Source of the DNA: a virus
Taxonomy: Duplodnaviria; Caudoviricetes
Length of the DNA: 64,000 nt
Virus record (IMG/VR): IMGVR_UViG_3300021399_000002
Coordinates: 1 to 64,000 of that record
Strand: one strand, 5' to 3'
Position 1 is the stretch's first letter. Every line of letters begins with the position of its first letter. Shown here in pieces: positions 1 to 55,242 of the stretch. Under the pieces are notes generated by a model. The model had not been told where the DNA came from, made no database searches, and worked only from the letters and a program-made list of their open reading frames with translations. The translations under genes were made by a program, and so were the position numbers.

Positions 1-1
1 T

Positions 2-139
2 GCTCCCGTGAGCGCACAGGAGATTGCGGACGAGACCGGGATTGCCCGTGGTAAGATTGTGTATGGTCTGACTAACTACTGGAAATCCGAAGTTGTTCGG
101 GATGATTCCGGTAAGACCGCCATCTACTCCCTCAAGTAA
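2..139 (+). CDS. Partial winged-helix-like protein (5' end outside window), paralog of 4123..4452
   Basis: Frame reads APVSAQEIADETGIARGKIVYGLTNYW..YSLK*, similar to PVTVADLF..KVQYALNNLW..TYRRA; terminator follows. Confidence 0.65.
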   Translation, partial: APVSAQEIADETGIARGKIVYGLTNYWKSEVVRDDSGKTAIYSLK

Positions 140-158
140 TCTTCCTTTCCTTTCCCCT

Positions 159-183
159 AACCGCCGTAAGGCGGTTTTCTTTT
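159..183 (+). terminator. Rho-independent terminator
   Basis: AACCGCC-GTAA-GGCGGTT followed by T-tract. Confidence 0.8.
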
Positions 184-191
184 ACTCAAAG

Positions 192-210
192 TTAGGTGTT
201 CAACACCTAA
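192..210. repeat. 19-bp palindrome copy 1
   Basis: TTAGGTGTTCAACACCTAA. Confidence 0.95.
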
Positions 211-231
211 AATTGTATCCAAAATACATTG

Positions 232-260
232 TTGACAAATATCAAATTTTATGATATAAT
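232..260 (+). promoter_or_regulatory. sigmaA/sigma70-type promoter with extended -10
   Basis: TTGACA-N17-TATAAT with TG at the extended position. Confidence 0.8.
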
Positions 261-309
261 TTTTCCAGAACAGGAGAAGGATACTCCCCAAACCAGAAAG
301 GATATGCGT

Positions 310-651
310 ATGGCAAGTAAGGCAAGTTTGGAAAATGCGCTTCGTACTGAAATTTTGGAAGTAATCACAGAAGCACTGTCTGAGCATTTTGATGTGGATA
401 TTATTACTGTTGGCAGCGGTGAAATTTCTTTGCCGATCACCGATGCCGAAGGAAATGAAAAGTATCCCAAGATTAAGGTTTCCATTCCTCGTGGTACTCG
501 CAACGGCGAAGGCGGCTATACTCCTTATGACGGATATAATGCCGCCGAAGAGTATAAACTTGAACAGGAAAGCAAGGCCCAGGAGCGTGCTGTTCGTAAG
601 GCTATGAGAGAAGCGGAAAAAGGAAAGAAGAAAGATGATTCCGAAGAGTAA
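310..651 (+). CDS. Hypothetical early protein with charged C-terminal tail; distant paralog of 1573..1917
   Basis: RBS GAAAGGA upstream; ITDAEGNEKY vs ITDLNGVQRY; the ORF-track start at 229 overlaps the promoter. Confidence 0.75.
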   Translation: MASKASLENALRTEILEVITEALSEHFDVDIITVGSGEISLPITDAEGNEKYPKIKVSIPRGTRNGEGGYTPYDGYNAAEEYKLEQESKAQERAVRKAMREAEKGKKKDDSEE

Positions 652-847
652 AGTATTCTATCATAAAGGACAGGCAAGAGAGTGCCGGGCGCTCTCTTGC
701 TATACCCTAAAACTTGAACTTCACGATGGAACCATTGTTGATGGCTATTACTATTGTGGACAATTCTATTCAGGCTTTGAAAAAATAACTGATAAAGTAA
801 ATCGGTGGATGATTCTACAAGAAGGAGAAAGCGTTAGACTTAACTAA
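635..847 (+). CDS. Hypothetical protein
   Basis: ORF overlapping the end of the upstream gene; ends TAA. Confidence 0.6.
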   Translation: MIPKSKVFYHKGQARECRALSCYTLKLELHDGTIVDGYYYCGQFYSGFEKITDKVNRWMILQEGESVRLN

Positions 848-859
848 CGCTTTAATAAC

Positions 860-878
860 TTAGGTGTTTAACACCTAA
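860..878. repeat. 19-bp palindrome copy 2
   Basis: TTAGGTGTTTAACACCTAA, then promoter TTGCTT..TGATATAAT. Confidence 0.95.
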
Positions 879-988
879 ATGTACCTCTTGCTTTTTTCCC
901 TCATTGTGATATAATACAATTGTTCCAAGGGAACGAAAGAAAATAACGAGAAGGACACTCGATAAAACCAGAAAGGAATTTTACGACT

Positions 989-1459
989 ATGAAGACTGTT
1001 CTGAATCTGACTGCTGATGAAGGTATGGAAATCGTTAAAGCTCTCCGCAATGTGGCTGTTGAAAACGGTTGGCATGAGGATGAACTGGAAGACTGCGGCG
1101 TTCTGATGGAGTACGGTGCCGCTATCGATGCCGCTCTGGCGGCTATGGGAATCTCTATCAACTTCGATGCCGATGAAGTTGAAGAAATGGTTTCCTCCGA
1201 TGAGTACGATGAGGACGAGGATGAGGATGAGGAAATTTCCCTTGAGGAAAAGTATCCCTCTCTGGCCGCTCTGGTTTATGACCTGCCGGATGGCCGCCGG
1301 GCTATTAAGGAAAGCGATGCCGATGAGTTTATCACTGAGTTGACCGAGCTTTTTGAGGATTGCGGTTTTGATGAAGAGGTAATAAAGTATATGCTCACGA
1401 TGGCTTGGACTACCTTCTGTAATGACTTCGGTATTGATGTGGTGGAGATGGACGAGTAA
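989..1459 (+). CDS. Highly acidic hypothetical protein
   Basis: RBS GAAAGGA; very D/E-rich. Confidence 0.8.
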   Translation: MKTVLNLTADEGMEIVKALRNVAVENGWHEDELEDCGVLMEYGAAIDAALAAMGISINFDADEVEEMVSSDEYDEDEDEDEEISLEEKYPSLAALVYDLPDGRRAIKESDADEFITELTELFEDCGFDEEVIKYMLTMAWTTFCNDFGIDVVEMDE

Positions 1460-1483
1460 TCGTCCATTTCCCCTTTCCTCCAA

Positions 1484-1502
1484 TTAGGTGTTTAACACCT
1501 AA
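1484..1502. repeat. 19-bp palindrome copy 3
   Basis: TTAGGTGTTTAACACCTAA, then TTGACT..TGATATAAT. Confidence 0.95.
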
Positions 1503-1572
1503 AATATTATCTTGACTTTTACTTTAGATATGATATAATGTGTATGAACCGAGAGAGAAAGGATGATGAAGA

Positions 1573-1917
1573 ATGGCGAAGATTACGAAGAATATTGTTG
1601 ACAAGGATTTGCGTGAGAATATCTTTAACGATATGTTCCGGAATGATTGTGATGGGTATGATTATGTAAAAATCAATGACCGTCAGTATGGTGTTCTCAT
1701 TACTGATTTGAATGGTGTTCAGCGTTATTGTCGTATTGGTGTTATCGTTGCCGAAGAGCGTGATGATATGACCGCCGAAGAACTGATGCGGTCTGAAATC
1801 AAGGCTTATCAGGCAAAGCAGGATGCTAAAACAGAAAAAGAAAAAGCCAAAGCGAAAAAGATTGCCAAGGATAAAGAGAAGCGTGAAAAGGAAAGGGCAA
1901 AGAAAGAAAATGAGTAA
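1573..1917 (+). CDS. Hypothetical protein with Lys/Glu-rich tail
   Basis: ORF downstream of promoter and RBS. Confidence 0.8.
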   Translation: MAKITKNIVDKDLRENIFNDMFRNDCDGYDYVKINDRQYGVLITDLNGVQRYCRIGVIVAEERDDMTAEELMRSEIKAYQAKQDAKTEKEKAKAKKIAKDKEKREKERAKKENE

Positions 1918-2083
1918 ATTTTGGATTGACTTTCAGGGCTATTGCTGTGTCGATGCTAATAGCAAAGAAGAAGCAGAAGAAATTTTCTGGGACAATATTA
2001 CCCCTCCAGTTAATCCTTTATATGATATCAATTATCAGGTTGATACTGTCGAAGAGGAGAAAAAGGGAAATGCTATTCAGTGA
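1910..2083 (+). CDS. Small hypothetical protein (MSKFWIDFQGYCCVDA..)
   Basis: ATG overlaps the upstream gene end. Confidence 0.6.
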   Translation: MSKFWIDFQGYCCVDANSKEEAEEIFWDNITPPVNPLYDINYQVDTVEEEKKGNAIQ

Positions 2084-2261
2084 AGAAAAATGTCCGAATT
2101 GTGGTAGCAGTGATTATGAAGTTGATATTTTCTGGGATGATTTTGATGAAGATGGCGGTAGAAGGGTATGGGAATGTGTTTGTTCATCTTGCTATACAAG
2201 ATTCAATATTATGTATGAATATAAATGTATCGGAACAACAGTTGAGGTTAGCGAAAGCTAA
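2070..2261 (+). CDS. Zn-ribbon small protein
   Basis: CPNC...CSSC motifs. Confidence 0.65.
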   Translation: MLFSEEKCPNCGSSDYEVDIFWDDFDEDGGRRVWECVCSSCYTRFNIMYEYKCIGTTVEVSES

Positions 2262-2277
2262 CTTCATTTTATTTTAA

Positions 2278-2296
2278 TTAGGTGTTTAACACCTAA
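2278..2296. repeat. 19-bp palindrome copy 4
   Basis: TTAGGTGTTTAACACCTAA. Confidence 0.95.
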
Positions 2297-2372
2297 ACTA
2301 CCCTCTTGCGATATCCTAATATTTATGGTATATTATGATTGTTCCAAGAGGAACGGAAAGGATGGATTGGAA

Positions 2373-2612
2373 ATGAAAATTTACTCCATTGAATGTATTA
2401 GTGGCGCAACAAAGGGGCCTTGCGGAATTTTTTCTACAATGAATCTTGCTCTCAGTATGATTATTTGTCGTAATAGTTTTCGTACTGATATGCCTTCCAT
2501 TTCAACGAATAATGATGAAGCATCAGTTATTTATGAGGGCAATGATGATTATAATTATGCAGAATATCACATTACAGAGCATGTTCTTGACAAATGGATA
2601 GGAGAAGTTTAA
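2373..2612 (+). CDS. Hypothetical protein
   Basis: ATG downstream of the promoter (MKIYSIEC..). Confidence 0.6.
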   Translation: MKIYSIECISGATKGPCGIFSTMNLALSMIICRNSFRTDMPSISTNNDEASVIYEGNDDYNYAEYHITEHVLDKWIGEV

Positions 2613-2816
2613 ATGAGTAATTATCTTAAAAGTTTTCAGTACACGAATAGTTTGGGCTATCAGAAAGAATTGGTCGTATATGAAAAAGTTGATGGAAAAT
2701 ATCCCGTCACGCTTTGGAGTTTGGATACTGGAGATTTCTGCGGCAACGGTAATATGACTACTCAGGAACTGAATGATTATTTAAAGCACTTCGGCATTGA
2801 AGAAAGGGTAGAATAA
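2613..2816 (+). CDS. Hypothetical protein
   Basis: RBS AGGAG; abuts the upstream stop. Confidence 0.7.
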   Translation: MSNYLKSFQYTNSLGYQKELVVYEKVDGKYPVTLWSLDTGDFCGNGNMTTQELNDYLKHFGIEERVE

Positions 2817-2817
2817 A

Positions 2818-3036
2818 ATGTATAAGATTGGACAAAAGGTTCAAATACTTGATACAATTATACCCACAATAGGATATATTATAAAAATGGAAATTGACCC
2901 TCTTGAAGAAATAGAAGTTGCTTCCGAATCTAAGGAATGGATTATATATACTATCAGAGTATATAAGCCCTTTTATATGAATGGCTATACTGACTATTCC
3001 CGTACAGAAAGAGAGATTAAAAAGACGGACGATTAA
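2818..3036 (+). CDS. Hypothetical protein
   Basis: Operon-like spacing; MYKIGQKV start typical of small SH3-like phage proteins. Confidence 0.6.
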   Translation: MYKIGQKVQILDTIIPTIGYIIKMEIDPLEEIEVASESKEWIIYTIRVYKPFYMNGYTDYSRTEREIKKTDD

Positions 3037-3477
3037 AAACTACCCTTGAAAGAAAAAGTAAGACTTCGTTAATAGAAGGTGGATGAAGTTAGAATGAGAA
3101 TCCATGAAATGACAATTTCAATGGTCGCAGACAATGGCCTAATGCCAGCTACCATCATACATAATTCTCCGAAACGGATTGTAAGTGGTATAAGGATGCG
3201 ACTGGGTTGGTTCTTCATACGGATTGGCGCCGGAATACTGTATGGAAAAGAATGGAAATATCTATCTGATTCATAACTTTTCTGATAATATTGAGAAAGT
3301 AGAGAAGAATAAAAATGCGTACACCACAGCAGAGAAAAGAACGAGCCGAACTGGTTAAGGAACTTAGTGATATTATTACTAACTGCGACAATGATACTGA
3401 TTTCTTTATTCGTCTTATCTGGGCGAATGAATGGATTAGTAATCAACTATTGAGATTTGAAAGCGAGGGACAGGAAA

Positions 3478-3735
3478 ATGCAGACGATTAAAAATTGGTT
3501 TGGTATTGAAACAGCTTACCGCTTTGAATGGAATGATGTTCGTTGCGGAATTACTATTCTTAATGTGGTTCTGATTATGCTCTTTGGCTTACAGGTTTCA
3601 TGGTTCGGCCTTGCAGTTGCGCTTTTCGGTGTATTCAAAGACCTTTCTCAGCATCGGCATATCAATGATGTTCTGATGCATTGTTCAAGTGTAGTTCTCA
3701 ATCTTTATTTCCTTTCCCTTCTCTATGGCGGTTAA
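3478..3735 (+). CDS. Membrane protein
   Basis: Hydrophobic segments; terminator-like hairpin follows. Confidence 0.7.
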   Translation: MQTIKNWFGIETAYRFEWNDVRCGITILNVVLIMLFGLQVSWFGLAVALFGVFKDLSQHRHINDVLMHCSSVVLNLYFLSLLYGG

Positions 3736-3750
3736 GCCGCCGCTTCATAC

Positions 3751-3769
3751 TTAGGTGTTTAACACTTAA
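3751..3769. repeat. 19-bp palindrome copy 5 (1 mismatch)
   Basis: TTAGGTGTTTAACACTTAA. Confidence 0.9.
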
Positions 3770-3909
3770 ATCAAACAATTGACTTTCTCTAAATTTGTGA
3801 TATACTATAATTGTTCCAAGGGGAACGAGAGGCACTCAGAAACAACCATGTGGAAACAGAAAACTCCTCAAACCTCTTGACAACAAGCAAATCCTGTGCT
3901 ATAATAAGG

Positions 3910-4020
3910 ATGTTCCCAGTAAGGGATGGACCTTCGGAGGTGAGAACTGACGGGTCGCCGTGAAATCTCCTGTAATCCCAAGGAGAGGAAGCGGACGGGT
4001 TTCCTCAACTTTCCCCGCTA
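3910..4020 (+). ncRNA. Candidate small structured RNA
   Basis: GC-rich stretch with no ORF, downstream of its own TTGACA..TGCTATAAT promoter and ending before the next promoter. Confidence 0.35.
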
Positions 4021-4122
4021 AGAAAAAAGTTGAGAAAAACACTTGACATCTTCCACGAAATGTGGTAAGATATATACGAAAACAGGGGAAGGAAAACCCC
4101 ACAAACCAGAAAGGTATTTATT

Positions 4123-4452
4123 ATGAAGAAAGCTACTCTGGAAGCCATTCGTACTACCATGCTCAACCTTGGTGTAGATGAAACCAATCCCCTGATTGTC
4201 GAACTGGATACCGAACTGAACAAGGGTGCCGCCGAGAAGGCCGCTCGTGCCGCTGAGTACGAAGCCATTCACGATCTGGTCGTGGATAACCTTACGGATA
4301 CTCCCGTGACGGTGGCCGACCTCTTTGCCGAGATTGAGGAAGAACTGCCCGAGGGCATGAATCGCCATAAGGTTCAGTACGCTCTGAACAATCTGTGGCA
4401 GGAAGAAATCGTCAAGATTGCCGGAAAGCCCAACACTTATCGTAGGGCGTAA
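4123..4452 (+). CDS. Putative winged-helix DNA-binding protein
   Basis: Promoter and RBS; C-terminal wHTH-like pattern. Confidence 0.75.
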   Translation: MKKATLEAIRTTMLNLGVDETNPLIVELDTELNKGAAEKAARAAEYEAIHDLVVDNLTDTPVTVADLFAEIEEELPEGMNRHKVQYALNNLWQEEIVKIAGKPNTYRRA

Positions 4453-4476
4453 GTATCCTTAAAAACCCTTTTACTA

Positions 4477-4758
4477 AACCGAGTGTCTGTGGGAGACCTA
4501 CACAGTCCCAGTCGAAACGCACAAAGGCTCGTGCCGAGTGTAGCGGTAGACAGTATATGTGGAGCTAAGGCGTAGAAGCATAACTGTGCAGAAGCGAGTC
4601 GCCGGGTTTACATACCTGCGGTTTACCGGTATTCATTGCGGTCTAAATTGGATGTGTCTCGACCCGAAAAACATGGAACATCCTCCGAGCCGTAGGAAGA
4701 ATTCGGTTATAGTCCGAGATGAAGCCGCCAGCGTGCCGATTTAAATCTCGGGCTTTTT
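4477..4758 (+). ncRNA. Candidate structured ncRNA (~230-280 nt)
   Basis: Closing stem AACCGAGT/ATTCGGTT, several internal helices, then CCGAGAT/ATCTCGG plus T-tract. Confidence 0.5.
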
Positions 4759-4771
4759 TATTATAATATAT

Positions 4772-4790
4772 TTAGGTGTTTAACACCTAA
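4772..4790. repeat. 19-bp palindrome copy 6 (between convergent units)
   Basis: TTAGGTGTTTAACACCTAA. Confidence 0.95.
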
Positions 4791-4806
4791 TAAAAAGTCC
4801 TGCGGA

Positions 4807-5133
4807 TTATATCCGCAGGATTCTTTTTATACTATCACAGAAGGTATCCCACCAAGTCTTTTCATACCGATAGAATGTGTCTACATAGATACGATAGATA
4901 GGATATTTTATTTCTGGATTATTCGGGTCAGGCTTCAAAAGCCAAAGTTCATCTTCCCATTTATCTCCCGGGCCTACCCAATTAGTAGAAAGCCATTTTG
5001 TTTTTCCCAATTCATGTACCGAATCAAGAATATTTTCATCCGTCAGATTCCCGTCATACTCTACCCCACCATAAACAATTTCAGACCCACCAAGTTTAGA
5101 ATACACAAGACGTTTAACTTTAATTATTTTCAT
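4807..5133 (-). CDS. Hypothetical protein
   Basis: ORF coupled to 5130..5495. Confidence 0.75.
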   Translation of the reverse strand: MKIIKVKRLVYSKLGGSEIVYGGVEYDGNLTDENILDSVHELGKTKWLSTNWVGPGDKWEDELWLLKPDPNNPEIKYPIYRIYVDTFYRYEKTWWDTFCDSIKRILRI

Positions 5134-5495
5134 TTTCCCAACACCTGCCTATATGCTATCTCCCAAGCCATATGCAATGCATCATGACTCGTCAACTGCT
5201 GAGTTTTCCCTGTATAGTGTCTCAGAAGAGTATTATTTATTTGCTTATATTGCCTTAAATCATCATCATATGCGGCAACAAGATTCAGAATATGTTTCTG
5301 ATAGGTTTCAATCTCTTGAAGTTCTATATTCTTATCTGGCCCATCAGGAAGCATTTCTGCACTTCCTTTACACAGAATAATCTTGCGGCAACAAGCTATC
5401 ATTGTTTGCCTATGCTCATATAGATTATCTAATAGTCCTTTCATATGAATATCTTCACTGCTCCAAGTATCAGACTCTTTTTTCCTTCCAAACAT
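5130..5495 (-). CDS. Hypothetical protein
   Basis: RBS AAAGGAG and minus-strand promoter TTGACT..TGATATAAT at ~5525-5553. Confidence 0.8.
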   Translation of the reverse strand: MFGRKKESDTWSSEDIHMKGLLDNLYEHRQTMIACCRKIILCKGSAEMLPDGPDKNIELQEIETYQKHILNLVAAYDDDLRQYKQINNTLLRHYTGKTQQLTSHDALHMAWEIAYRQVLGK

Positions 5496-5561
5496 ATCTT
5501 CATCTCCTTTCCGATTACATACATATTATATCAAATCTAAATAAATAGTCAATAGATTTAT

Positions 5562-5580
5562 TTAGGTGTTCAACACCTAA
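5562..5580. repeat. 19-bp palindrome copy 7
   Basis: TTAGGTGTTCAACACCTAA. Confidence 0.95.
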
Positions 5581-5722
5581 TTTAATAGGCTTTCGCCTAT
5601 TCTAACATGGAATCATTCTTTTATCAATTTTTCGGCCGCTTCATAGCACATACCCAAATAGAAAGCGCAACCATTTCTACAAGATATATCCAATACATTT
5701 AATTCTCCTTTGTTTAACAATA

Positions 5723-6139
5723 TTAAACCTCTCTGCTATAAAAGCACCAATTGCCAGCAAACTTATATTCTAATTTAAATCCCTCAGATTCTAATATATG
5801 TCTCATCGTATAGTTATCTTCCCATGGAGTCGCGCCAATTTTACAATCCCGCATAAGATTCACAAGTTCATGAATAATAAATCGGGCAATCCCTTTTCCG
5901 TAATTCTTTTTATTTAATATACATAAACGCTTAATCGCAATATAATCCCACGCATCTTCTTCCACTAATGAAAATGTAGCCAAAATTTTGTCGCCTTCGT
6001 ACACGCAATATAAACGACATATTAAATAATCATTCCGTGCTTGATTGGCAGTACAAAAAGAAATATCTTTATAGTGTAGAGCTTTACAAATCTTCGCACA
6101 ATCTTCTTTCGTTGCTACTCTAATCCTCATCTCTCTCAC
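5723..6139 (-). CDS. GNAT-family N-acetyltransferase
   Basis: MRIRVATKED start; NYGKGIA acetyl-CoA loop; N..MRHILESEGF C-terminal motif. Confidence 0.8.
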   Translation of the reverse strand: MREMRIRVATKEDCAKICKALHYKDISFCTANQARNDYLICRLYCVYEGDKILATFSLVEEDAWDYIAIKRLCILNKKNYGKGIARFIIHELVNLMRDCKIGATPWEDNYTMRHILESEGFKLEYKFAGNWCFYSREV

Positions 6140-6186
6140 CTCGGATAGAGTATATCATATTTTATACTAAAAGACAACTACCATAT

Positions 6187-6205
6187 TTAAGTGTTTAACA
6201 CCTAA
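6187..6205. repeat. 19-bp palindrome copy 8 (1 mismatch)
   Basis: TTAAGTGTTTAACACCTAA. Confidence 0.9.
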
Positions 6206-6209
6206 ATCA

Positions 6210-7100
6210 ACCACTTGACAAATTCCCTAAAATGTGCTTATCCCCTTGTATACAGTATACAGTATCCAGTATTTTTATGGCGCCCTTTCTGGCGCAAGCA
6301 TCTCGTAGCTGTCAAGTACTTGACAAGCCGCCGCATCAAGCTGCGCGAGCTGCGCCTATAAGCTGGACGCGCTATAAGCTGGAAAGCTGGAAAATTCCGC
6401 GGCAAATATTTGACATAAGCTGGAAAGCTGGACCGGAGAAGCTGCTGTCAAGTATGTATACTGTATACATATTTAAGCTGAAAAAAGCTGGAATTTAAAA
6501 ATTGTTTGGGACTTCCATACAGATAGGCGCTTCACTTATTCAGCGCGCACGAAAAATTCTATTGCGGAAAGCTGCATTATTCCCGATGCTATCGAGAGCT
6601 CAGAAGCTGAACGCAATATGATTTTTCGTAAATGCCATTTTGAAAGGGCATTCGCCCGCAAAATACGCACCCTTTTCAGGCGCATTTGATATTTTCTATT
6701 TTAGCTGGAAAAAGGGTACTACTTTCGCCGCGAAAATTTTCTCAGTAGAAGAAAAATTTTTAGCTTACTACTACTTTAATATTATATACATATATATGTA
6801 AGAAGGTGGGAGGGAAAATATATAAATATAAATAGTCAATAAATAATATCATTTATGTCTGTTTAGGGGGATCGCACGAAAAAATCTATTGCGCAAGGCC
6901 ATGAGTATAAGTTAAAATAAGCTGCGTATTCTAATGGATAGAGAAGTAAAAATTTATTGTCAGAAAATGTTGTCAAGTATTTGACAAAGTATTTTTTCTT
7001 ATGGTATAATAAAGAAAAAAATAAATATTTAAAATAATTTTATTTTTTAATTAATTTTTTGTTTGAAAAAAGTAAAAAATTGTGGCACATCCACCCAATT
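6210..7100. repeat. Repeat-rich non-coding region (origin/terminus candidate)
   Basis: About a dozen same-strand AAGCTG(G) copies; 15-bp IR 6247-6261/6455-6469; palindrome TGTCAAGTACTTGACA 6310-6325; AT tracts. Confidence 0.6.
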
Positions 7101-7267
7101 TCCCGCTTCATCAACCTCTATACCGATTGCTATCGAGAAGTACCAATATACACCTTCACATCGGAACCCCATTGCCCTATAATCAATTTATTTTCCCGCT
7201 TTCTTGCTTATTTATTGTAAGAGTAGTGAACCCCGACTTTACTATTAATTTTTGTAGGAGTTAAAAA

Positions 7268-7501
7268 ATGGCATTTATTATAAAAGAGTTTGATAAGTAT
7301 AGTAGGTGGGATAGAGAACATGCCACTTATACTTTTAGTATTAATGATAATATGTATGCGGTTATGAAGGTTAGAATGGAGTGGGGATTGCCGCAGGTGC
7401 CTATGCAAGTAGAATATGATGAGGATTTGGGGATATATTAGGTGTATGAGACGGAGGAGTAGGCAATGGAGTTTGTGCGTTTAGTACATTCGTTAAATTG
7501 A
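7268..7501 (+). CDS. Hypothetical protein (2 in-frame TAG)
   Basis: RBS AGGAG; open to TGA if TAG is read as sense. Confidence 0.7.
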
Positions 7502-7577
7502 CGGCGCGAACCATACATAATATGGGAGTACGCGCCTATTTTTTATGGCATCCTATACTATATTTAGAGGTGAGAAT

Positions 7578-9230
7578 ATGAGAGAGCATTAGGATGCGAA
7601 AGAATTTGCTATACATGATATTATTGAGTTAGTAAGAAAAACTAATTTATAGGATATGAATACTTTTTTGGTATTGAACGGCGGCACCGGTGTTGGTAAG
7701 ACAACTGCTATTATGGATAAGGTACTTTAGGTGTTAGATGAGAAGTGCCACGGGCCGCAAACTATGCTTGTTGTGGAGAGTAGGAGTATTACGGTGGAGT
7801 AGCTGCGGCATAAGTATGGGGAAACGGATGTTTGCCAGAGAATGGGATTTGCTAATATGATTTGCCGCGGTGCCGTAGACTATGATTGGGTTGTGATTGA
7901 TGAGTGTCATGGGTTATTTAGTGAGGCATCGTTCGCAGAAGATACAACTATTATTGGTGAATGGATTAGGAGCGGCCGCACTTACTAGCATGTAATATTT
8001 ATTACGGCGAATGATGAGTATTTTGAGGAATTGGCGAAATAGTTTTTCGCGGAAGAATGTAATTTTATTTATTTGTTTCCAGATTTTACTAAGTATGTTA
8101 GTAATACTTATGTGAAGGAGATATAGTTTATTAAGACTAGGAATACGAATGATACATTTAGTTATTTTATAGAGTAGGAAAAGAATAAGCGTGGTATTGT
8201 ATTTTTAAAGAGCGCGAGTAAGGTTAAGGATTGGTATTTTCGTCTTATAGATTAGAAGAAGTAGGTTGCTATGTTTGTTTCGCGCGCGAATTAGACATCG
8301 CTCGCGCTTAGTATTGAGTAGGCAAGTATTGCGGCAAATGATTTGATGTTGGATTTAAGCGGCGGCGAAAGCGGCCTGACTCTTGCGGACTTACAAATAA
8401 TGGCGGATAAGTAGAGAATTGCGGCAGGTAAGGAGTCATTGTTTGAGGCATTGGTTAATGAGCATTTGCCGGATGATATATAGATTTTGTTGGTGACGGA
8501 TACATTATAGGAAGGTATGAGTCTTACATTTCCTAAAATAGACTTCATGATTATTGAAGGGTATGGGGAAGTTGAGATTAGATAGAAGGTAGGTAGGTTT
8601 CGCGGCAATTTGGATTAGCTTTTTATTGTATTCAATCCTAATAATGCTATACGAGATTTTCAAATTCAATTTAATATGTTTACATACTATCGTAAGTTAT
8701 AGGATGAGGGGAATTAGATTGAGCTGGCGAAGTAGTATGGGATAATAAAAGGCGCGAAATTTAAAGTTAGATATATAGTAGAACGGCAATTTCAAAATGG
8801 AATTAAGTATTATGAGATAAATGAATAGGCTTACTTACATCTCCTAAAAGAGCACCAGGATTATTTAAGGCTAATTTCAAATTCAAACTTGGCGGTATAG
8901 GAGATGTACTCATATTTAGGCGCCAATCCCGTAATTATCCCCCCAAATGAAATTCGAATTTCATTTTAGAAAGAGAAATTAATAAAGATTGCGGATAAAT
9001 GGAGAAAAATTCCCTTAAAGGGCCCCGCATAGGAGGAACTTTTGGAAAACTTTGCGCGCGAAGGTATTAGAGATAGAAGCGGGAAAAAGGTTAATTCATT
9101 GCGCGCTTGTATTACATTGTTTACAAATGCGGAAATTTCAGTTGCGGAAAAATAGGCAACAGTTAAGGATGTAGAATAGTGGCCGCAATATCTTACTAAG
9201 GTGAGGGAAAAGTATAGGTATATTGTTTAA
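7578..9230 (+). CDS. SF2 DExH-box helicase, ~550 aa, TAG-recoded (absent from ORF track)
   Basis: Walker A NGGTGVGKT, DECH, FITAN, DTL*EG, R*KVGRFR (motif VI); roughly 25 in-frame TAG; ends TAA before a terminator. Confidence 0.9.
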
Positions 9231-9233
9231 TAT

Positions 9234-9261
9234 TAGGGAGCCGTAAGGCTCCTATTTTTTT
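9234..9261 (+). terminator. Rho-independent terminator
   Basis: GGAGCC-GTAA-GGCTCC plus T-tract. Confidence 0.8.
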
Positions 9262-9434
9262 ATTTGACAATGGAAAGAGATTGGGATATAATAAAAGAAA
9301 AAAAGGTATATGAAATTTATAGGATATGTATATCTTTTTCTTGTCTAATTTTATTTAAAATTTTTTATAACGAAAAAGAAAAAATGCCATGAATTCAATA
9401 TCCCGAAAATACTATTATTATGGAGGTGATGATA

Positions 9435-9635
9435 ATGGATGAAGTTATGAAACTAAAAGAACTAGCTAACTTTGGTATTCCTGTATTAGTTCTCGCGCGC
9501 GAATGTCATTGTTCTGTGACCAGCATACGCAATTACTTATCAGGTGCATCTATTCCAAATGGCGGCAAGGTAATAGCTATTCAAGACGGATTAAATAATC
9601 TAATCAACACTTTAACACAAATTGTCAAGGAGTGA
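9435..9635 (+). CDS. Cro/Xre-like HTH protein
   Basis: LARECHCSVTSIRNYLSG HTH pattern; GGAGG RBS. Confidence 0.75.
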   Translation: MDEVMKLKELANFGIPVLVLARECHCSVTSIRNYLSGASIPNGGKVIAIQDGLNNLINTLTQIVKE

Positions 9636-9640
9636 CCTTA

Positions 9641-9811
9641 ATGAACTTATTTCCTATTTTCTCGCGGCGCATTGCATATGAACTTGAGAAACAGGGATTC
9701 AATATTATACAAATTGCGCCAAATCGTAATAATCCTACTTTAAGTGTATATTACTTTGAAGAAACCGCAGAATTTCATAAAGCTGCCCAGGAGCTTATCC
9801 GTAAGGAATAA
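9641..9811 (+). CDS. Small DUF5659-like phage protein
   Basis: IFSRRIAYELEKQGF..PNRNNP..VYYFEET; RBS AAGGAG. Confidence 0.6.
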   Translation: MNLFPIFSRRIAYELEKQGFNIIQIAPNRNNPTLSVYYFEETAEFHKAAQELIRKE

Positions 9812-9853
9812 TCTTGGATTCTACTATATTCTAATTATTCGGAGTTGATTCTA

Positions 9854-10189
9854 ATGACAGAAACAAAAGCTATCGCTCTTAGAAGCGATATAGATAAATC
9901 TGATTTAAAAGATACGCAACAAACATGGATTATATATCCAGAATTATTTCGTAAAATAAATGAAAAAATTCCTAGTAAAAATAGTGTTTGCCGTGCTATT
10001 CTATTATATCTTATATTTCAAAAACAAAATGGAGATTTTGCACCTGCGGAAGAAACTATCCGTAAATACTGTAATATCAGCGCGCACTCATCATATGTTG
10101 ACGCACGAAAATGGCTTCATGATAATGGCTTTATTACTTATATACCTTATCGTGAAATTATAATCAATTATAAAAAAATAATGGAATGA
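9854..10189 (+). CDS. Winged-helix protein resembling a replication-initiator N-terminus
   Basis: ILLYL..FAPAEETIRKYCNIS..ARKWLHDNGFITY; directly upstream of the iteron-like array. Confidence 0.6.
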   Translation: MTETKAIALRSDIDKSDLKDTQQTWIIYPELFRKINEKIPSKNSVCRAILLYLIFQKQNGDFAPAEETIRKYCNISAHSSYVDARKWLHDNGFITYIPYREIIINYKKIME

Positions 10190-10380
10190 TGTGTCTGTTG
10201 AAACGACATGTGTCGTCTGAGACGACTAATTTTAATTAAAAAATTCATGTGTCGGTTGAGACGACACATGTCGTGTGAGTAATATTTTCATGTCGCCTGA
10301 GACGACACAATTTAATTAAAAATGTGTCGGTTGAGACTACACATAACAATATAATATAACAATATAATTAACAATATAAT
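10189..10380. repeat. Iteron-like array plus AT-rich 12-mer triplet
   Basis: Five (ATG)TGTCGnyTGAGACGACAC-type units, then TAACAATATAAT x3. Confidence 0.8.
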
Positions 10381-10490
10381 GGCGGAGCCTACCGCGCCTG
10401 GCGGCGCGGTTCCGCCATAGGGCTTCACCCGAATATTTGACAATCCCAAAATTTATGTTATAATAAAAGTAAGAAAGGAAGATGATAGAT

Positions 10491-10700
10491 ATGATTACAG
10501 CCGCGGAAGCTTATACTGCAACAATTAATAACCAAGAACTTAATTTAATTCGTAATTTGATTGCGGACGCTATTCGTAGCGGTAGTTTTGAATGTCATTA
10601 TATGCGCCGCACGCTCTCCAAAGAAACTCGTACCGCACTGCGGCGGCTCGGCTATAATGTATCCGGGCAGGCGCCATTTATTATTAGTTGGGAGAAGTAA
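10491..10700 (+). CDS. Small protein; paralog family with 12395..12649 and 12643..12933
   Basis: ITAAEA..I..AI..G..LRRLGY..ISW pattern. Confidence 0.7.
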   Translation: MITAAEAYTATINNQELNLIRNLIADAIRSGSFECHYMRRTLSKETRTALRRLGYNVSGQAPFIISWEK

Positions 10701-10701
10701 T

Positions 10702-11199
10702 ATGGATAGTGATATTGAATTTCTACAAGATTTTCTATTTTATGATAAGTGGCGTATTCGTGAATTACAATTTTCTTTGTATTCTGCTCTACAAAAGCTT
10801 GGCTCTCTCTTGCGTAATAAGGAATCAAGTATAACAATTGTTTATGAGTCAGAAGATACTCCAATGTATGAATTGGTTGAATTATTGGATGGCAATAATT
10901 TTCAAGTAAATTATGGTCTATCGGTGTTTGGCTGCGATGCGGCAAAGTTGATTCCAAATTATCCAGAAACGGCAGAAATAGTATATGTAGAAGAGCCATT
11001 CGAAGCACTTGCTGAAACTTATTATACAGCTACAGCTACAGCTACAGCTACAGCTACTGACACTTATTATACATCAGTATCTTATTCTTATCCTCCAGAC
11101 CACACCTATGGTTTGCCAGAAAAAAGAGAATCATTTCAGCATGAAATAGAATCTACGATAGATAAAGTACTAAAACCGCCTTGGCGTAGAAAGGAATAA
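10702..11199 (+). CDS. Hypothetical protein with (TA)5 peptide from (ACAGCT)5
   Basis: ATG after GGAG; tandem repeat at 11026-11055. Confidence 0.7.
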   Translation: MDSDIEFLQDFLFYDKWRIRELQFSLYSALQKLGSLLRNKESSITIVYESEDTPMYELVELLDGNNFQVNYGLSVFGCDAAKLIPNYPETAEIVYVEEPFEALAETYYTATATATATATDTYYTSVSYSYPPDHTYGLPEKRESFQHEIESTIDKVLKPPWRRKE

Positions 11200-11202
11200 G
11201 TA

Positions 11203-11433
11203 ATGGATATTAGAAATTGTGTTAGATTTTATGATGAAGATGATTTATATAAGTTAGAAACAGAATATCGGGCGACCGCAGTTTTCTTAGAAAGACTAGC
11301 TTCCTATAAAATCGATTCTTTTAAAGTGAATAGGGTAAACGACTTACTCGAATATGTAGATGGTAATGGTTTTTCCATTACTTATGATGACACAATAGGA
11401 AGATATATTGTGAAGAGGGGAAAAATAAAATGA
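11203..11433 (+). CDS. Hypothetical protein
   Basis: Operon spacing and RBS. Confidence 0.65.
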   Translation: MDIRNCVRFYDEDDLYKLETEYRATAVFLERLASYKIDSFKVNRVNDLLEYVDGNGFSITYDDTIGRYIVKRGKIK

Positions 11434-11963
11434 ACTATAACAATGTATGGCACTTTTCCTGCGGCAAGTGCTATTATTTAACGCATCCTTGGGAATGGGT
11501 AAAGGAAGCCGCATATAATATTCGCGCCGCGTGGCATCGTGCGACTCGCGGCTGGGATTATATGGATGTTTATAATATGGATACTTGGTTTCTCCATACT
11601 ATTCCTTCCATGCTTCGCTATTTGGCGGAAAACGGCCATGCATACCCGGGCGTTGAGCCATTTGAAAACCCACAGCGTTGGAAAGACTGGCTCCTTGAAA
11701 CCGCCAATCTACTTGATACTGGCCTTGAAGATTGGCAAAATGAACATAATGAGTACTACGATGAATATATGAAACATTTGATGGATAACTGGGAACCACC
11801 GACCAAAGATGAAAATGGTTTTCTTGTCCATAAGTCGCGCGAATTTACTGAGCTTGATAAGAAGTACTTTGCGCGCGCGAAGGAGCTAATGGAACAAGGC
11901 GAAAAGAATGTTCAGTTGGCTTTAAAGCGTATGAGTGAATAGTTTTATTCTCTATGGGATTAA
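11430..11963 (+). CDS. Hypothetical protein (1 TAG read-through, ends FYSLWD)
   Basis: ORF-track stop is TAG; frame continues to TAA at 11961-11963 next to the following RBS. Confidence 0.75.
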
Positions 11964-11975
11964 GGAGGGTGCGCG

Positions 11976-12182
11976 ATGACAGCTCTATTAAAGCGTAATG
12001 GGCCGAAGTTCCATTGCTCAAATTGTATGATGGAGGTTCGCCCGCAAGAGGGCGGAGACTTACCAATTGTTTGTTTCTTTTGCGGCAGTGTCTTCTCTAA
12101 TTGGGAAGAAATCGCAATTGAAGAATATAGAAAAGAATTAGAACACGCGCCGAATTACCTTAATTCGGCAGGAGGAAACTAA
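11976..12182 (+). CDS. Zn-ribbon protein
   Basis: CSNC..CFFC; AGGAGG RBS. Confidence 0.7.
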   Translation: MTALLKRNGPKFHCSNCMMEVRPQEGGDLPIVCFFCGSVFSNWEEIAIEEYRKELEHAPNYLNSAGGN

Positions 12183-12183
12183 T

Positions 12184-12402
12184 ATGAAAATTACTTACCT
12201 TGAAAGATATACTATTCTATCGCCGCTTATTCGTTCCCATTACTGCGCCTGCGGCAACCATTCACCCAGACTTGTAGAGCAACTTGAGCCATATACTGAA
12301 TATAAGTGGCGTGTAGAATGCCCAGAATGCGGCCGCGAAACGCCTATGTATCTTCTGGCTAAAAGCGCGAAGAAAGCTTGGAGTGAAGGCATCAATGATT
12401 AA
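12184..12402 (+). CDS. Lar-like Zn-finger protein
   Basis: CACG..VECPECG..AKKAWS pattern. Confidence 0.6.
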   Translation: MKITYLERYTILSPLIRSHYCACGNHSPRLVEQLEPYTEYKWRVECPECGRETPMYLLAKSAKKAWSEGIND

Positions 12403-12649
12403 AGCGTCTAAGGCCGTGCAAATTACAGAACAAGCTTATATAAAGGAACGCGATGATTTATATCAAAATATTAATGATGCGATTCTTAAGGCCGCTAACA
12501 AAGGTTTATCATCCTGTAATATATATGATTCAATATATTTTGATGATACAACTAAACATGCGCTTAGTATAGCTGGTTATCGTATCCATTATATAGAGAG
12601 TGATTGGGGTAATTTTTATAGAATAAGTTGGGGTGATAACAAATGTTAA
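12395..12649 (+). CDS. Small paralog-family protein
   Basis: IKASKA..INDAILKAA..ALSIAGY..ISW. Confidence 0.7.
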   Translation: MIKASKAVQITEQAYIKERDDLYQNINDAILKAANKGLSSCNIYDSIYFDDTTKHALSIAGYRIHYIESDWGNFYRISWGDNKC

Positions 12650-12933
12650 CAATGTTTACTGCACTTGAAGCGCGAGCAACAGCATATCTTGTATCACCAG
12701 AAGACTATTCATTATATCAGCATATTGAAATTCGTATTCTAGATAGTGTACAGCATGGAGGCACTCATATCCTTTATGCTGGTGAGATTACACCCGGAGT
12801 TATAGATGCCTTAAAAGCATTAGGATATGCTATTACTTATCTTGAATACGAAGGAAAAGAACAGATGATTCGTATAGATTGGACTAATGCTAATGCGCGA
12901 GGAATTCACAATGACGAAACAAGAAATGATTGA
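12643..12933 (+). CDS. Small paralog-family protein
   Basis: FTALEAR..ALKALGY..IDW. Confidence 0.7.
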   Translation: MLTMFTALEARATAYLVSPEDYSLYQHIEIRILDSVQHGGTHILYAGEITPGVIDALKALGYAITYLEYEGKEQMIRIDWTNANARGIHNDETRND

Positions 12934-12975
12934 AAATATGAATATTTATGCGGCGGCAATAGAGGAGGAAGAATA

Positions 12976-13176
12976 ATGCCAAAGACATTAGAAGAATTAG
13001 CCGTAATGCTGGCTAAACGCGATGCATCAACTTTTGAAGAAGAAATGACACTTATTCGTGATACCGCCGCGGAAATGGAATTTGCTTTTTATGAAGGCAA
13101 TTTAAATCTAGCAGAAACTATTCTTAGAGATAATCTTGGATTAGAGCCAGATTATTTAGACCTATTTATTTATTAA
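12976..13176 (+). CDS. Hypothetical protein
   Basis: GAGGAGG RBS; LGLEPDYL. Confidence 0.75.
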   Translation: MPKTLEELAVMLAKRDASTFEEEMTLIRDTAAEMEFAFYEGNLNLAETILRDNLGLEPDYLDLFIY

Positions 13177-13181
13177 AGTAT

Positions 13182-13427
13182 ATGAACGAATGTATTGAAA
13201 ATACAATTACAATTTATCCTAAGGGAAAAGCAACAATTATTTCATCAGCATTAATAGATGAATCTATAAATTTACCTATTGAGGAAATTGAGGAATTAAC
13301 TAAAAAAGAAATTCAAACTCAAATTTGTAATAATTTAATTGAGCACAATCGTATAAAAATTATAAAAGAATATGACCCTATGACTAATAAGAAATATTAT
13401 CGAGGAGAACTCACTATTGAGTATTAA
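13182..13427 (+). CDS. Hypothetical protein
   Basis: Operon spacing. Confidence 0.6.
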   Translation: MNECIENTITIYPKGKATIISSALIDESINLPIEEIEELTKKEIQTQICNNLIEHNRIKIIKEYDPMTNKKYYRGELTIEY

Positions 13428-13433
13428 AATAAA

Positions 13434-13733
13434 ATGCTAACGAGTATAAATACATTGGAATTCCAAACTATGCCAATTACAGTAGGTTTTAATCCCATTG
13501 ATAATGAGATTAAAGAATATACAGATAAAACCGATAGACATGTAGACCAACTTGAAGAAGACATTGAATTTTTAACAACAAAATATAAGGAATTACTGAT
13601 TATGTTAGATGAATATAAGCGTAAATGTGATGAATTAGAATGTAAATTAGAATGTCAATTAGATAATGAGGTTAATAGAGTTAATAATTTATATGCAAAT
13701 TTACTTGATAGAATTAATGAAACAAGGAGATAA
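13434..13733 (+). CDS. Coiled-coil hypothetical protein
   Basis: Operon spacing. Confidence 0.6.
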   Translation: MLTSINTLEFQTMPITVGFNPIDNEIKEYTDKTDRHVDQLEEDIEFLTTKYKELLIMLDEYKRKCDELECKLECQLDNEVNRVNNLYANLLDRINETRR

Positions 13734-13739
13734 TTAGAT

Positions 13740-14069
13740 ATGGAAATTTTTTATTATGAAACTTCTTATCCTTCAATCATGGCACTACCACTTGTATTTA
13801 TAATAGTAGGATTAGGTTTATTAGTAGTTGTTATAGCTCTACTGTTATGTGATGAGGAATGGGATACTCCCATGATAGTTAGCGTCATTTTAGGAGCTAT
13901 ACTACTAATTGGTGGTATTATTTGGAGCTGTAATATCGAGAAAGATATATATGTTTACGGCCGCGTTAAGGATAACCAATCATTTACTGAAATAAATGAT
14001 AGGTACGAATATATAGAAGATGTTGAAGGGGTTTATAAATTTAGAGTCAAGGAAAAGAATGATGACTGA
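13740..14069 (+). CDS. Membrane protein (2 TM)
   Basis: Two hydrophobic helices; RBS AAGGAG. Confidence 0.75.
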   Translation: MEIFYYETSYPSIMALPLVFIIVGLGLLVVVIALLLCDEEWDTPMIVSVILGAILLIGGIIWSCNIEKDIYVYGRVKDNQSFTEINDRYEYIEDVEGVYKFRVKEKNDD

Positions 14070-14235
14070 TAAGAAAAATACAGAAGCGGCGCCACGCAAG
14101 AATATAAAAGCTAATCGCGCAAAGTACACGCAACCAATTATGAGGAAGTTTCTTTGCGCGAAGTGCGGATATTTATTCTTTGGATTTGAAGATGAAACTA
14201 AAAAGTGCATTAATTGCGGGAATGATTTGCAATGA
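14062..14235 (+). CDS. Zn-ribbon small protein
   Basis: CAKC..CINC. Confidence 0.6.
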   Translation: MTDKKNTEAAPRKNIKANRAKYTQPIMRKFLCAKCGYLFFGFEDETKKCINCGNDLQ

Positions 14236-14404
14236 AAAAATATTTTTTATGTCATGTCTTAAATAAACATAAATGGAAATCATTAGGAGTTTCTATGAAT
14301 GGACAGTATAGAAGATATATATGTTTAAGATGTGGATTAGAACAATGGCGTAAAATTTTTAATTGACTTTTATTTAAAATTGTTCTATAATAATGGAGAA
14401 GAAG

Positions 14405-14599
14405 ATGATAGAAGATAAAATAGTAAATGGAGTTATTTTAGGAATCTTACTAACAATATTTTGTTTACGAATTTTTAATGTTATTACATGGCCTTGGGTA
14501 TGGATTCTCGCGCCATTATGGATCCCCTTGAGCTTAGGAATAATATTGGTTTTTATATTTATTATTATAATTTTATTAAGAGAGGTATTTATTAAATGA
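14405..14599 (+). CDS. Small membrane protein (WxWVWxLAPLW type)
   Basis: ITWPWVWILAPLWIP motif. Confidence 0.7.
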   Translation: MIEDKIVNGVILGILLTIFCLRIFNVITWPWVWILAPLWIPLSLGIILVFIFIIIILLREVFIK

Positions 14600-15057
14600 A
14601 AAAGCGGCCTAATATTGGAATTAAAGAAGCAGATTGCAAGTTTTACATAAATAGAGAAAAGCGAACAGTTATTTGTGTTATTCCAAAAACTGCTTTGCTT
14701 CTTGAAGATTTTATTGAAAATAATTTTAATTTCTCTGACATTAATATTATAGATGCTATAACATTCTCTAAAAACGGAGAAAAGGCTATGCGTATGCCTT
14801 CCTATTTTATGGGAAAAGCTAAATGCTCTAATGAAGATGAATGGGATGAAGAGCTTGGAAAGTTGATTGCTTTTTCTCGCGCAAAGGATAAGTGTTATAA
14901 AAGCTTTTTTAGGAGGGCAAATAATCTTGTGCAGGCTATTGATGCTCGTCTAACTAATATGATTGAAACTTTTAATTTATTCGGCCAGAAGCTAGATGAT
15001 AAGCATATTCAGTTAACAGATAAAATTGAATCAAGAATTCAAAATAAAGAAGAATAA
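14596..15057 (+). CDS. Hypothetical phage protein
   Basis: GKAKCSNEDEWDEELGKLIAFSRA motif. Confidence 0.75.
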   Translation: MKKRPNIGIKEADCKFYINREKRTVICVIPKTALLLEDFIENNFNFSDINIIDAITFSKNGEKAMRMPSYFMGKAKCSNEDEWDEELGKLIAFSRAKDKCYKSFFRRANNLVQAIDARLTNMIETFNLFGQKLDDKHIQLTDKIESRIQNKEE

Positions 15058-15116
15058 TTTTCTATTTGATATATTATAAAATTATGATATAATATATTTA
15101 TAGAAAGGAAAAATGA

Positions 15117-15437
15117 ATGGAATATAATAAGCTTGTAGATTTGTATAAAAGAGAAATGGTTGTTTTTACTGCGGAAATTTCAGGAGTACAACTTTTTATG
15201 CTATTACATGATAAGTTAATTAGCACAGTTAATTATCAAGGCAAATTATATAAAATGAGTTTTACTCCTGTTGAAAATTATATTGCTCCTTTAATTATAA
15301 TAAATGATGAAACATGTCCTGATTATCATGAAGGAATAGAAACAATATATAAAATCATGAAGCATTTGGATAAAGAACCTATTCATTATATACAAATAGA
15401 AGATGAAATATTCAAAATTGAATTTGAAGAGGAATAA
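15117..15437 (+). CDS. Hypothetical protein
   Basis: Promoter and RBS. Confidence 0.7.
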   Translation: MEYNKLVDLYKREMVVFTAEISGVQLFMLLHDKLISTVNYQGKLYKMSFTPVENYIAPLIIINDETCPDYHEGIETIYKIMKHLDKEPIHYIQIEDEIFKIEFEEE

Positions 15438-15859
15438 TGAAAGAAAGATATTTTAAATTTGCGCGAGAAGCCGCAAGATGGGCAGATTATCAAGGTACTC
15501 GTTCTGCACCATCAATCGGCGCGGTAGCTGTCTATAAAGGAAGTATCGTCGCAGAGGCATGGAATACTAATAAAACTTCTACTCTTCAAGCGCGCTATAA
15601 TGTATATCGTTATAAGCCGGCGAATACTCCTTGCAAGGCACACTGTGAAACACAATTGATTCAACGGCTACGATGGAAATTTGGAGACGGAATTAATTGG
15701 TCTAAGGTGCATATTTATTTATATCGAGAACATAAAGATGGAAAACTAGCTTCTTCGCGCCCGTGCCCTTCGTGCATGGCGCTATTGAAAGATTTTGGTA
15801 TCAAAAAAATTATGTATACAACTGAAGATGGGTATGCTGAAGAATATATAGGCAGTTAA
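15437..15859 (+). CDS. Zn-dependent cytidine/dCMP deaminase-family protein
   Basis: AHCE and SRPCPSC motifs. Confidence 0.85.
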   Translation: MKERYFKFAREAARWADYQGTRSAPSIGAVAVYKGSIVAEAWNTNKTSTLQARYNVYRYKPANTPCKAHCETQLIQRLRWKFGDGINWSKVHIYLYREHKDGKLASSRPCPSCMALLKDFGIKKIMYTTEDGYAEEYIGS

Positions 15860-54673: not shown

Positions 54674-54778
54674 TATTTGACTTTTTTCAAATTTCATGAT
54701 ATAATATTTACAGAAAGTGAGGAAAGGAACTCACCTTCTAAAAATAATTTTTTTCATTACATAAGGAGGTAATGAAGT

Positions 54779-55156: not shown

Positions 55157-55242
55157 TGCCCGTAGGTGTGCGGCTGCACGGGCGGTCTCTAAAACCGCGG
55201 CCTCTGAAGCAAACGGACTGGGTTCGACTCCCAGGCGGGCAG
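55157..55242 (+). tRNA. Amber suppressor tRNA (anticodon CUA), probably Gln-accepting
   Basis: Acceptor TGCCCGT/GCGGGCA, G73; arm GCGGT-CTCTAAA-ACCGC; T-arm CTGGG-TTCGACT-CCCAG. Confidence 0.85.

Follow-up and report, generated by a model that had tools for sequence, protein, structure and literature searches.

The first 64 kb of the 182,655-bp, rumen-type phage genome IMGVR_UViG_3300021399_000002 (Caudoviricetes) make up the stretch analysed here (64,000 nucleotides), referred to as the window. At positions 7578–9230 it holds a gene for a superfamily 2 (SF2) helicase of the DExH type, in which 26 TAG codons are read as glutamine, whereas neighbouring genes use TAG sparingly and the replisome genes of the same phage hardly at all. 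With moderate confidence, we regard the product as an accessory helicase that belongs to a TAG-permissive class of genes, is made after the phage has switched its genetic code, and probably acts in late DNA processing. The first-pass annotation of this DNA recognised the gene and its codon content, but also proposed that replication from adjacent origins depends on it. The codon load is borne out by the present data; the control of replication is not.

Under the standard code the helicase disappears from the open reading frame (ORF) track, as had been noticed, and it reads as one frame only when TAG is translated as glutamine. The original estimate of about 25 TAGs in 550 codons, with the first at codon 5, was close: the gene has 26, at codons 5, 25, 51, 75 and onwards, beside 7 CAA and 2 CAG. 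A Shine-Dalgarno site (GAGGTGAG, 7567–7574) precedes the ATG at 7578. TAG makes up 4.7% of the codons, the highest density among the 100 genome ORFs of at least 150 amino acids (aa); the next values are 3.6% and 3.3%. By comparison, ORFs on the left (positions 1–6498) contain 7 TAG against 59 CAA and CAG, and those on the right (9420–15859) contain 3 against 40, so that the first description of these early genes, as having essentially no TAG, is about right. Genes were called by a simple longest-ORF rule under which a few small ORFs may be spurious, and some of the few neighbour TAGs fall in doubtful minus-strand ORFs.

Two properties combine to produce this density. Glutamine accounts for 6.4% of helicase codons against a mean of 3.8%. 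TAG accounts for 0.74 of these glutamine codons; the pooled value for 39 other TAG-using genes is 0.48 (binomial P=0.0014), and that expected from the base composition of the helicase itself is 0.55 (P=0.014). High TAG density is here the product of a glutamine-rich protein and saturated TAG use. Late genes reach shares of 0.67–0.71, and the helicase tops this range without leaving it. A local G/T-rich mutational bias, offered at first as an alternative source of the TAGs, is ruled out, since the frequency of out-of-frame TAG per position is 0.0218 both in the helicase and in its right-hand neighbours, against 0.0211 in all genes genome-wide. The TAG trinucleotide is therefore not locally enriched. 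The contrast between the helicase and its neighbours arises because in-frame TAG is selected against in the neighbours, not because mutation has favoured it in the helicase.

The reading of TAG was examined in 55 distinct full-length orthologue genes recovered from IMG/VR and from scans of metagenome contigs. In the other 54 orthologues, the sites of these 26 TAGs are occupied by CAA or CAG 586 times and by TAG 266 times; the next residue is glutamate, with 108 occurrences. Alignment columns 75, 248, and 336 hold glutamine codons or TAG only. The last of these is Q336 of motif VI, which is written as TAG here and in 20 other orthologues and as CAA or CAG in the remaining 34. Inside the TAG-dense clade, the ratio of nonsynonymous to synonymous substitution rates (dN/dS) is 0.03–0.12, indicating strong purifying selection. 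More than 269 database proteins match the helicase; nearly all of them have a length of 550 aa, which is retained in over 100 homologues. These alignments make a functional protein with glutamine at TAG a well-supported reading, and the dependence of helicase synthesis on amber suppression, as originally stated, holds for a gene with 26 in-frame TAGs. A pseudogene is ruled out by the lack of TAA or TGA in 550 codons, the retained length, the low dN/dS, and the placement of TAG at conserved glutamine columns, one of them in a catalytic motif. Any broader notion of decay or compositional artefact is hardly credible, as it has the raw stop count under translation table 11 in its favour and nothing else, and out-of-frame TAG stands at the genome average.

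The protein carries the expected helicase motifs. Motif I (GTGVGKT, residues 36–42) and motif II (DECH, 108–111) are invariant in 21 aligned homologues, and motif VI (QKVGRFRG, 336–343) lies in the second RecA-like domain. Two RecA-like domains (approximately residues 1–350) are followed by a C-terminal domain (350–550). Pfam scores for DEAD (25.7 bits, cut-off 26) and Helicase_C (17.6, cut-off 23.5) both fall just below threshold, and PF00270 is listed for most homologues in a precomputed table. The AlphaFold model (predicted local distance difference test, pLDDT, 74) contains the two RecA-like domains, and its comparison by VIA-align gives Z values of 14–15 over 313–332 residues with RecQ/BLM cores and of 13–14 with DEAD-box proteins. 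These values are tied, so the modelled fold does not permit assignment to an SF2 subfamily. The resemblance to RecQ and DEAD-box cores (PDB 7aud, 4q48, 1oyw, and 7pmq) extends to the two RecA-like domains and to motifs I, II, and VI. Unlike those structures, to which identity is 10–15%, the phage protein has no detected RecQ-C, HRDC, or zinc domain, and its C-terminal 200 residues lack a convincing counterpart. Folded alone, these residues reach a pLDDT of 88; a fold search with them returned no convincing match and no recognisable DNA-binding fold, the best hit being a helical hairpin (Z 6.3). Searches of PHROGs gave no family, tblastn against GenBank phages gave no match, and a sequence-profile search of the PDB gave only a spurious P-loop match (E=0.07). 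Judged by its motifs and predicted fold, the gene product is a real SF2 helicase, as the first identification had it.

The genome as a whole displays partial recoding. Its ends share 127 bp, and it is therefore circular and complete (182.5 kb). Coding density is 0.66 when computed with table 11 and 0.91 when TAG counts as sense. The phage encodes 24 tRNA genes, including tRNA(CUA) and tRNA-Gln(UUG), which share the same acceptor end (U1-A72, G2-C71, G73). Alignments of the TAG sites suggest that tRNA(CUA) is charged with glutamine. Its 86-nt body has a long variable arm and a short D-arm, unusual for a glutamine acceptor despite the glutamine-like acceptor end. A sigma-70-type promoter upstream presumably drives this suppressor, and neither a release-factor gene nor a glutaminyl-tRNA synthetase gene was found in the genome. 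A 5012-aa ORF (L011, genome 136717–151755, minus strand) contains 167 in-frame TAGs. Late suppression must therefore become nearly complete, as even an efficiency of 0.99 per codon would yield only 0.19 (0.99^167). The +4 context of sense TAG is the same as background.

TAG at conserved glutamines, the gain in coding density, the tRNA(CUA), and the combination of standard-code early and replication genes with recoded late genes are the features of code-15-type partial recoding. Partial TAG-to-glutamine recoding with such an early–late division was reported by Ivanova et al. (2014), as cited in PMC7886860. Code-15-type recoding in gut and rumen phages has been described by Yutin et al. (2021; PMC7886860) and Borges et al. 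(bioRxiv 10.1101/2021.08.26.457843). In the present genome the early–late split has exceptions on both sides: some late structural genes lack TAG, and TAG-rich islands interrupt the early and middle genes.

The replisome is the clearest part of the TAG-free set. A replication module at 101–124 kb of the genome encodes GyrB, GyrA, an AAA_24 ATPase, a DnaB_C-family helicase, RecJ, DnaE, and NrdD, and a DNA ligase gene lies at approximately 86.5 kb. These genes carry 0 or 1 TAG each, and the replisome is therefore translatable in the standard code. Across 79 IMG/VR orthologues, the DnaB-like gene contains 5 TAG against 909 CAA and CAG. Such figures sit badly with the first-pass model, in which the SF2 helicase is an origin-opening or initiator helicase whose TAG load holds back initiation at adjacent origins until the suppressor tRNA is available. 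It would be odd if the replication genes were readable while initiation waited. The model does draw on the position of the gene, which lies in the early region beside repeat-rich, AT-rich intergenic stretches. The herpes origin-binding-protein family (PF02399, Herpes_ori_bp) also occurs on 19% of the members of one feature-based look-alike cluster, and two giant-virus "origin binding" helicases rank low among the viral fold matches. The helicase itself, however, has no PF02399 among its Pfam matches at E up to 1, and it has no Pfam match to DnaB_C. The flanking origin-like regions fare no better, as cumulative GC skew climbs steadily from 6 to 129 kb without an origin-like turn beside the helicase. 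Distribution adds to these objections: IMG/VR scans recovered the SF2 helicase on 9 contigs, against 32 for a RuvC-like gene and at least 80 for the DnaB-like gene. It may occur only in one sub-branch of a large rumen phage family, or its sequence may have diverged beyond detection elsewhere, and much of the wider family may be without it. An initiator role is improbable on these grounds, to which the TAG-poor orthologues described below contribute.

TAG-rich islands occur in or next to the replication module. They comprise the RuvC-like resolvase (8 TAG), a GIY-YIG nuclease (9), a PhoH-PIN protein (6), and a 974-aa protein of unknown function (30); the start of the resolvase gene overlaps the stop of a TAG-free gene. 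The SF2 helicase groups with these islands and not with the replisome. On the late side, four structural genes (L012:966–1970, 5709–6830, 6830–7459, and 7473–8777, minus strand; genome 152765–160576) contain no TAG and prefer CAG, for example with 15 CAG and 1 CAA. They include a virion protein gene, a gene in the major-capsid position, and scaffold-like genes. Since these highly expressed late genes are TAG-free, TAG avoidance is not simply a matter of early versus late.

A separate observation concerns a 436-aa ORF (L012:13028–14338, minus strand; genome 164827–166137), in which 7 of 20 glutamine codons are TAG. It matches the PHROG sigma factor phrog_5767 (E=1.4e-19) and no Pfam family, and it heads the minus-strand terminase/portal/head operon behind a sigma-70-like promoter. 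Should this ORF encode a late sigma factor, the suppressor would be a precondition for late transcription as well.

Relatives reveal how far the helicase load can vary. TAG counts in the 55 orthologues range from 0 to 28 and TAG shares from 0 to 0.80. In the protein tree, the window helicase falls within a five-member clade with 19–28 TAG. High loads occur separately in L016 (21), L045 (18), and the L051–L054 clade (17–23), whereas sister sequences have 0–6. Helicase TAG share does not correlate with TAG use in the 10-kb flanks (rho 0.18 and -0.04), and the RuvC-like gene shows a similar spread, from 0 to 0.76 in 27 orthologues. Two gene classes can thus be distinguished: one that never takes TAG, represented by the DnaB-like gene, and a tolerant one that wanders from none to saturation. 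Per-gene TAG share, the measure put forward in the first-pass annotation, places the helicase at the top of the range within its own genome, but the load is lineage-variable and the gate is not conserved.

A continuous range of loads with several independent rises is also what neutral drift would produce. Under this explanation, the suppressor is present almost from the start of infection, a low-abundance helicase with little selective pressure on how efficiently it is translated gained TAG by the C-to-T-favoured route from CAG to TAG, and any effect on timing is invisible to selection. The parallel variation of the RuvC-like gene is consistent with it, as are the TAG share of 0.45–0.55 predicted by base composition alone, the absence of a 5′ bias or special +4 context, and the host-type promoter of the suppressor. 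The highly expressed late structural genes fit as well, since their avoidance of TAG tracks yield as much as timing. Against drift stands the almost absolute exclusion of TAG from early neighbours and replisome, which implies a phase in which TAG is unreadable; a 26-TAG gene is necessarily silent in that phase, selected or not. Furthermore, the five clade members hold shares of 0.65–0.80, above the pooled value, at synonymous divergence (dS) of approximately 0.5–1.4. Even protein-close orthologue pairs have dS of 0.4–1.6, and synonymous sites are saturated. TAG and CAA are linked only via the rare CAG, so TAG loads change slowly relative to other silent sites and the level of a clade persists. 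Overall, drift without consequence for timing is possible but not probable.

The favoured account, an accessory helicase made after the code switch, would operate as follows. The tRNA(CUA) of the phage would read TAG as glutamine, and genes needed before it works, or needed in bulk, would be kept TAG-free by selection. Small early genes, the replisome genes, and the gene for the probable major capsid protein would form this set. Elsewhere, in genes that tolerate delay, drift would convert glutamine codons to TAG up to a level of about half or more, and the helicase, being both glutamine-rich and saturated (26 of 35 glutamine codons), would represent the far end of this process. Full-length yield would scale with approximately the 26th power of suppression efficiency, giving about 1e-8 at an efficiency of 0.5 and 0.065 at 0.9. 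Virtually no helicase would be made before the switch and near-normal amounts after it, when the TAGs would cost little. The host polymerase could make helicase mRNA as it does that of the neighbours, with protein appearing only after the code switch, which would amount to a translational delay. Likely substrates would be DNA or RNA structures formed late, for instance branches, R-loops, and recombination intermediates. A late role of this kind would fit alongside the TAG-rich islands that encode the RuvC-like resolvase, the GIY-YIG nuclease, and the PhoH-PIN protein.

Several observations weigh against this account. The excess of TAG over neutral expectation is modest (0.74 against approximately 0.5), and its P values of 0.001–0.014 are uncorrected for about 40 genes. 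No significant 5′ concentration of TAGs was seen (median permutation P 0.52 when judged by the first TAG, 0.21 by mean position); a TAG that recurs at codon 17 in a low-TAG clade counts as a single event. Non-glutamine codons of the helicase look early-like in a codon-usage classifier (log-likelihood ratio -5.3), the accuracy of which is just 64–77%. In addition, the orthologues of L004, L001, and L024 carry 0, 1, and 3 TAG, respectively. Their flanks gain 0.15–0.23 in coding density under TAG as glutamine and include long neighbours with TAG shares up to 0.69, and these phages are therefore equally recoded. TAG-free orthologues in recoded relatives mean that the gate is dispensable for the helicase family. 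The late timing suggested for the window helicase is read from its codons, and a suppressor tRNA behind a host-type promoter could leave the delay short. Adaptive gating is not demonstrated by a set of TAGs that lacks 5′ concentration, has an ordinary +4 context, exceeds expectation modestly, and is missing from some orthologues.

Upstream gene context offers a further clue to how the load may be set. In low-TAG relatives (L003, L004, L014, L024–L028, L031, L038, L040, and L041), a conserved small gene (approximately 60–160 aa), here termed geneX, overlaps the helicase start by 4–22 nt. It is absent from the present genome, where a small gene encoding 77 aa (p77) lies directly upstream instead. 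Within the main clade, the median TAG share is 0.17 for helicases overlapped by geneX (n=16), but 0.58 for those that have lost this coupling, begin after a gap, and carry a ribosome-binding site of their own (n=16; Mann-Whitney P=1.7e-5). TAG share also falls as the distance from p77 to the helicase grows (Spearman rho -0.82, n=23). Phylogenetic sign tests of the association are not significant, with just 3–5 independent transitions. That TAG load is a dial tuned per cistron in response to operon context is a hypothesis and not a result, and we consider it unlikely. If true, recoded stops would be selected gene by gene to re-time proteins after a change in transcriptional or translational context, and the SF2 helicase family would provide a natural series in which to measure such tuning.

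In the window, the helicase appears from its sequence surroundings to have its own expression unit, composed of a putative promoter, p77, the helicase, and a terminator (Table 1). In 22 other relatives, a p77 homologue (36–71% identity) precedes the helicase, and the p77 stop is 1 nt (L022) or 11 nt (L002) from the helicase ATG; no convincing Pfam family was found for p77. The hairpin between the two genes could be a weak terminator or attenuator. L018 and L019 retain only part of its outer stem, and L002 and L022 lack the element altogether; this poor retention makes a function doubtful. Sigma-70-type sites with at least 11 of 12 matches number 60 genome-wide, against 9–19 in shuffled sequence. 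Such promoters span early, middle, and some late genes, so that promoter type cannot date the helicase. Together with the Shine-Dalgarno sites, the promoters suggest that the host belongs to the Bacillota.

Table 1. Positions of the helicase gene and associated features, in window coordinates unless marked as genome coordinates.
Feature	Position	Strand	Remarks
Sigma-70-type promoter, putative	6981–7010	+	TTGACA-18 nt-TATAAT with TG, 12/12 matches; nearest strong promoter upstream of the p77–helicase pair
p77, small conserved gene	7268–7501	+	77 aa; 2 TAG near 3′ end; AGGAG site before ATG
Hairpin with T-run	7503–7546	+	Between p77 and helicase; RNA fold -19.6 kcal/mol, z = -2.2
SF2 (DExH) helicase	7578–9230	+	550 aa; 26 TAG read as Gln; one frame with TAG as Gln, ends TAA
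Intrinsic terminator	9236–9262	+	Strong; 7-bp GC-rich stem, GTAA loop, T7 run; narrower span 9236–9253; 6 nt past helicase stop
Sigma-70-type promoter	9264–9292	+	12/12 matches; starts next, TAG-free, gene unit
Sigma-70-type promoter	54677–54705	+	11/12 matches; precedes TAG-free 114-aa ORF (54779–55123) and suppressor tRNA
Amber suppressor tRNA, anticodon CUA	55157–55242	+	First of 24 tRNA genes; sole TAG decoder found in genome
DnaB-like helicase	genome 110555–111769		TAG-free; DnaB_C E=4.6e-9

Two repeat structures were observed nearby. An 18-bp palindrome, TTGTCAAGTATTTGACAA (window 6970–6987 and 6310–6326), supplies a -35 box on each strand, including that of the promoter upstream of p77. 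The resulting back-to-back promoters stand at the edge of a palindrome-tagged early region. Further right, at 10176–10344, 4–5 copies of a quasi-palindromic unit (core TGTGTCG..TGAGACGACACA) with AT-rich tracts between them are flanked by two gene units; possible roles are those of stacked terminators, operators, or iterons.

In its general layout, the phage resembles published recoded phages: it encodes its own tRNA(CUA), has TAG at glutamine positions, keeps early and replication genes free of TAG, and is rich in TAG in genes for structure and lysis. A delay of translation through recoding, lasting until the suppressor is present, has already been proposed (PMC7886860; 10.1101/2021.08.26.457843). 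Variable recoding of the replication machinery has been reported by Borges et al. (bioRxiv 10.1101/2021.08.26.457843), and genomes in the course of accumulating TAG by Yutin et al. (2021; PMC7886860). Unlike the published cases, the densest TAG gene is here neither structural nor lytic, but an accessory helicase isolated within the early region. A second difference is that its orthologues carry 0–28 TAG in equally recoded relatives, set against a DnaB-like control that is never recoded.

The nearest functional parallel is UvsW of phage T4, an SF2 helicase that is expressed from a late promoter and unwinds origin R-loops; its appearance ends origin R-loop replication (PMC3016281). In both phages the SF2 helicase is distinct from the replicative hexameric helicase and would have a resolvase as partner. 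In T4 this is endonuclease VII, which resolves branches at packaging (PMC3016281), and here it would be the RuvC-like enzyme. The means of delay differ: in T4 it is set at transcription, whereas in the present phage TAG would impose it at translation. Neither the PDB sequence matches of the helicase nor its listed fold matches include UvsW. With no specific link in sequence or fold found, the parallel is an analogy of logic only and not one of family membership.

The helicase is a clear case of the published code-switch idea and does not define a new mechanism of replication control or a switch on replication itself. For annotators it carries a caution, as genuine early-region enzymes can vanish from standard-code gene calls. 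For the code-switch model, this phage family provides a clean contrast between a DnaB-like helicase that is never allowed TAG and an SF2 helicase that ranges from none to 28 across relatives. With 26 TAGs, one of them in a catalytic motif, the helicase protein would serve as an all-or-none reporter of suppression.

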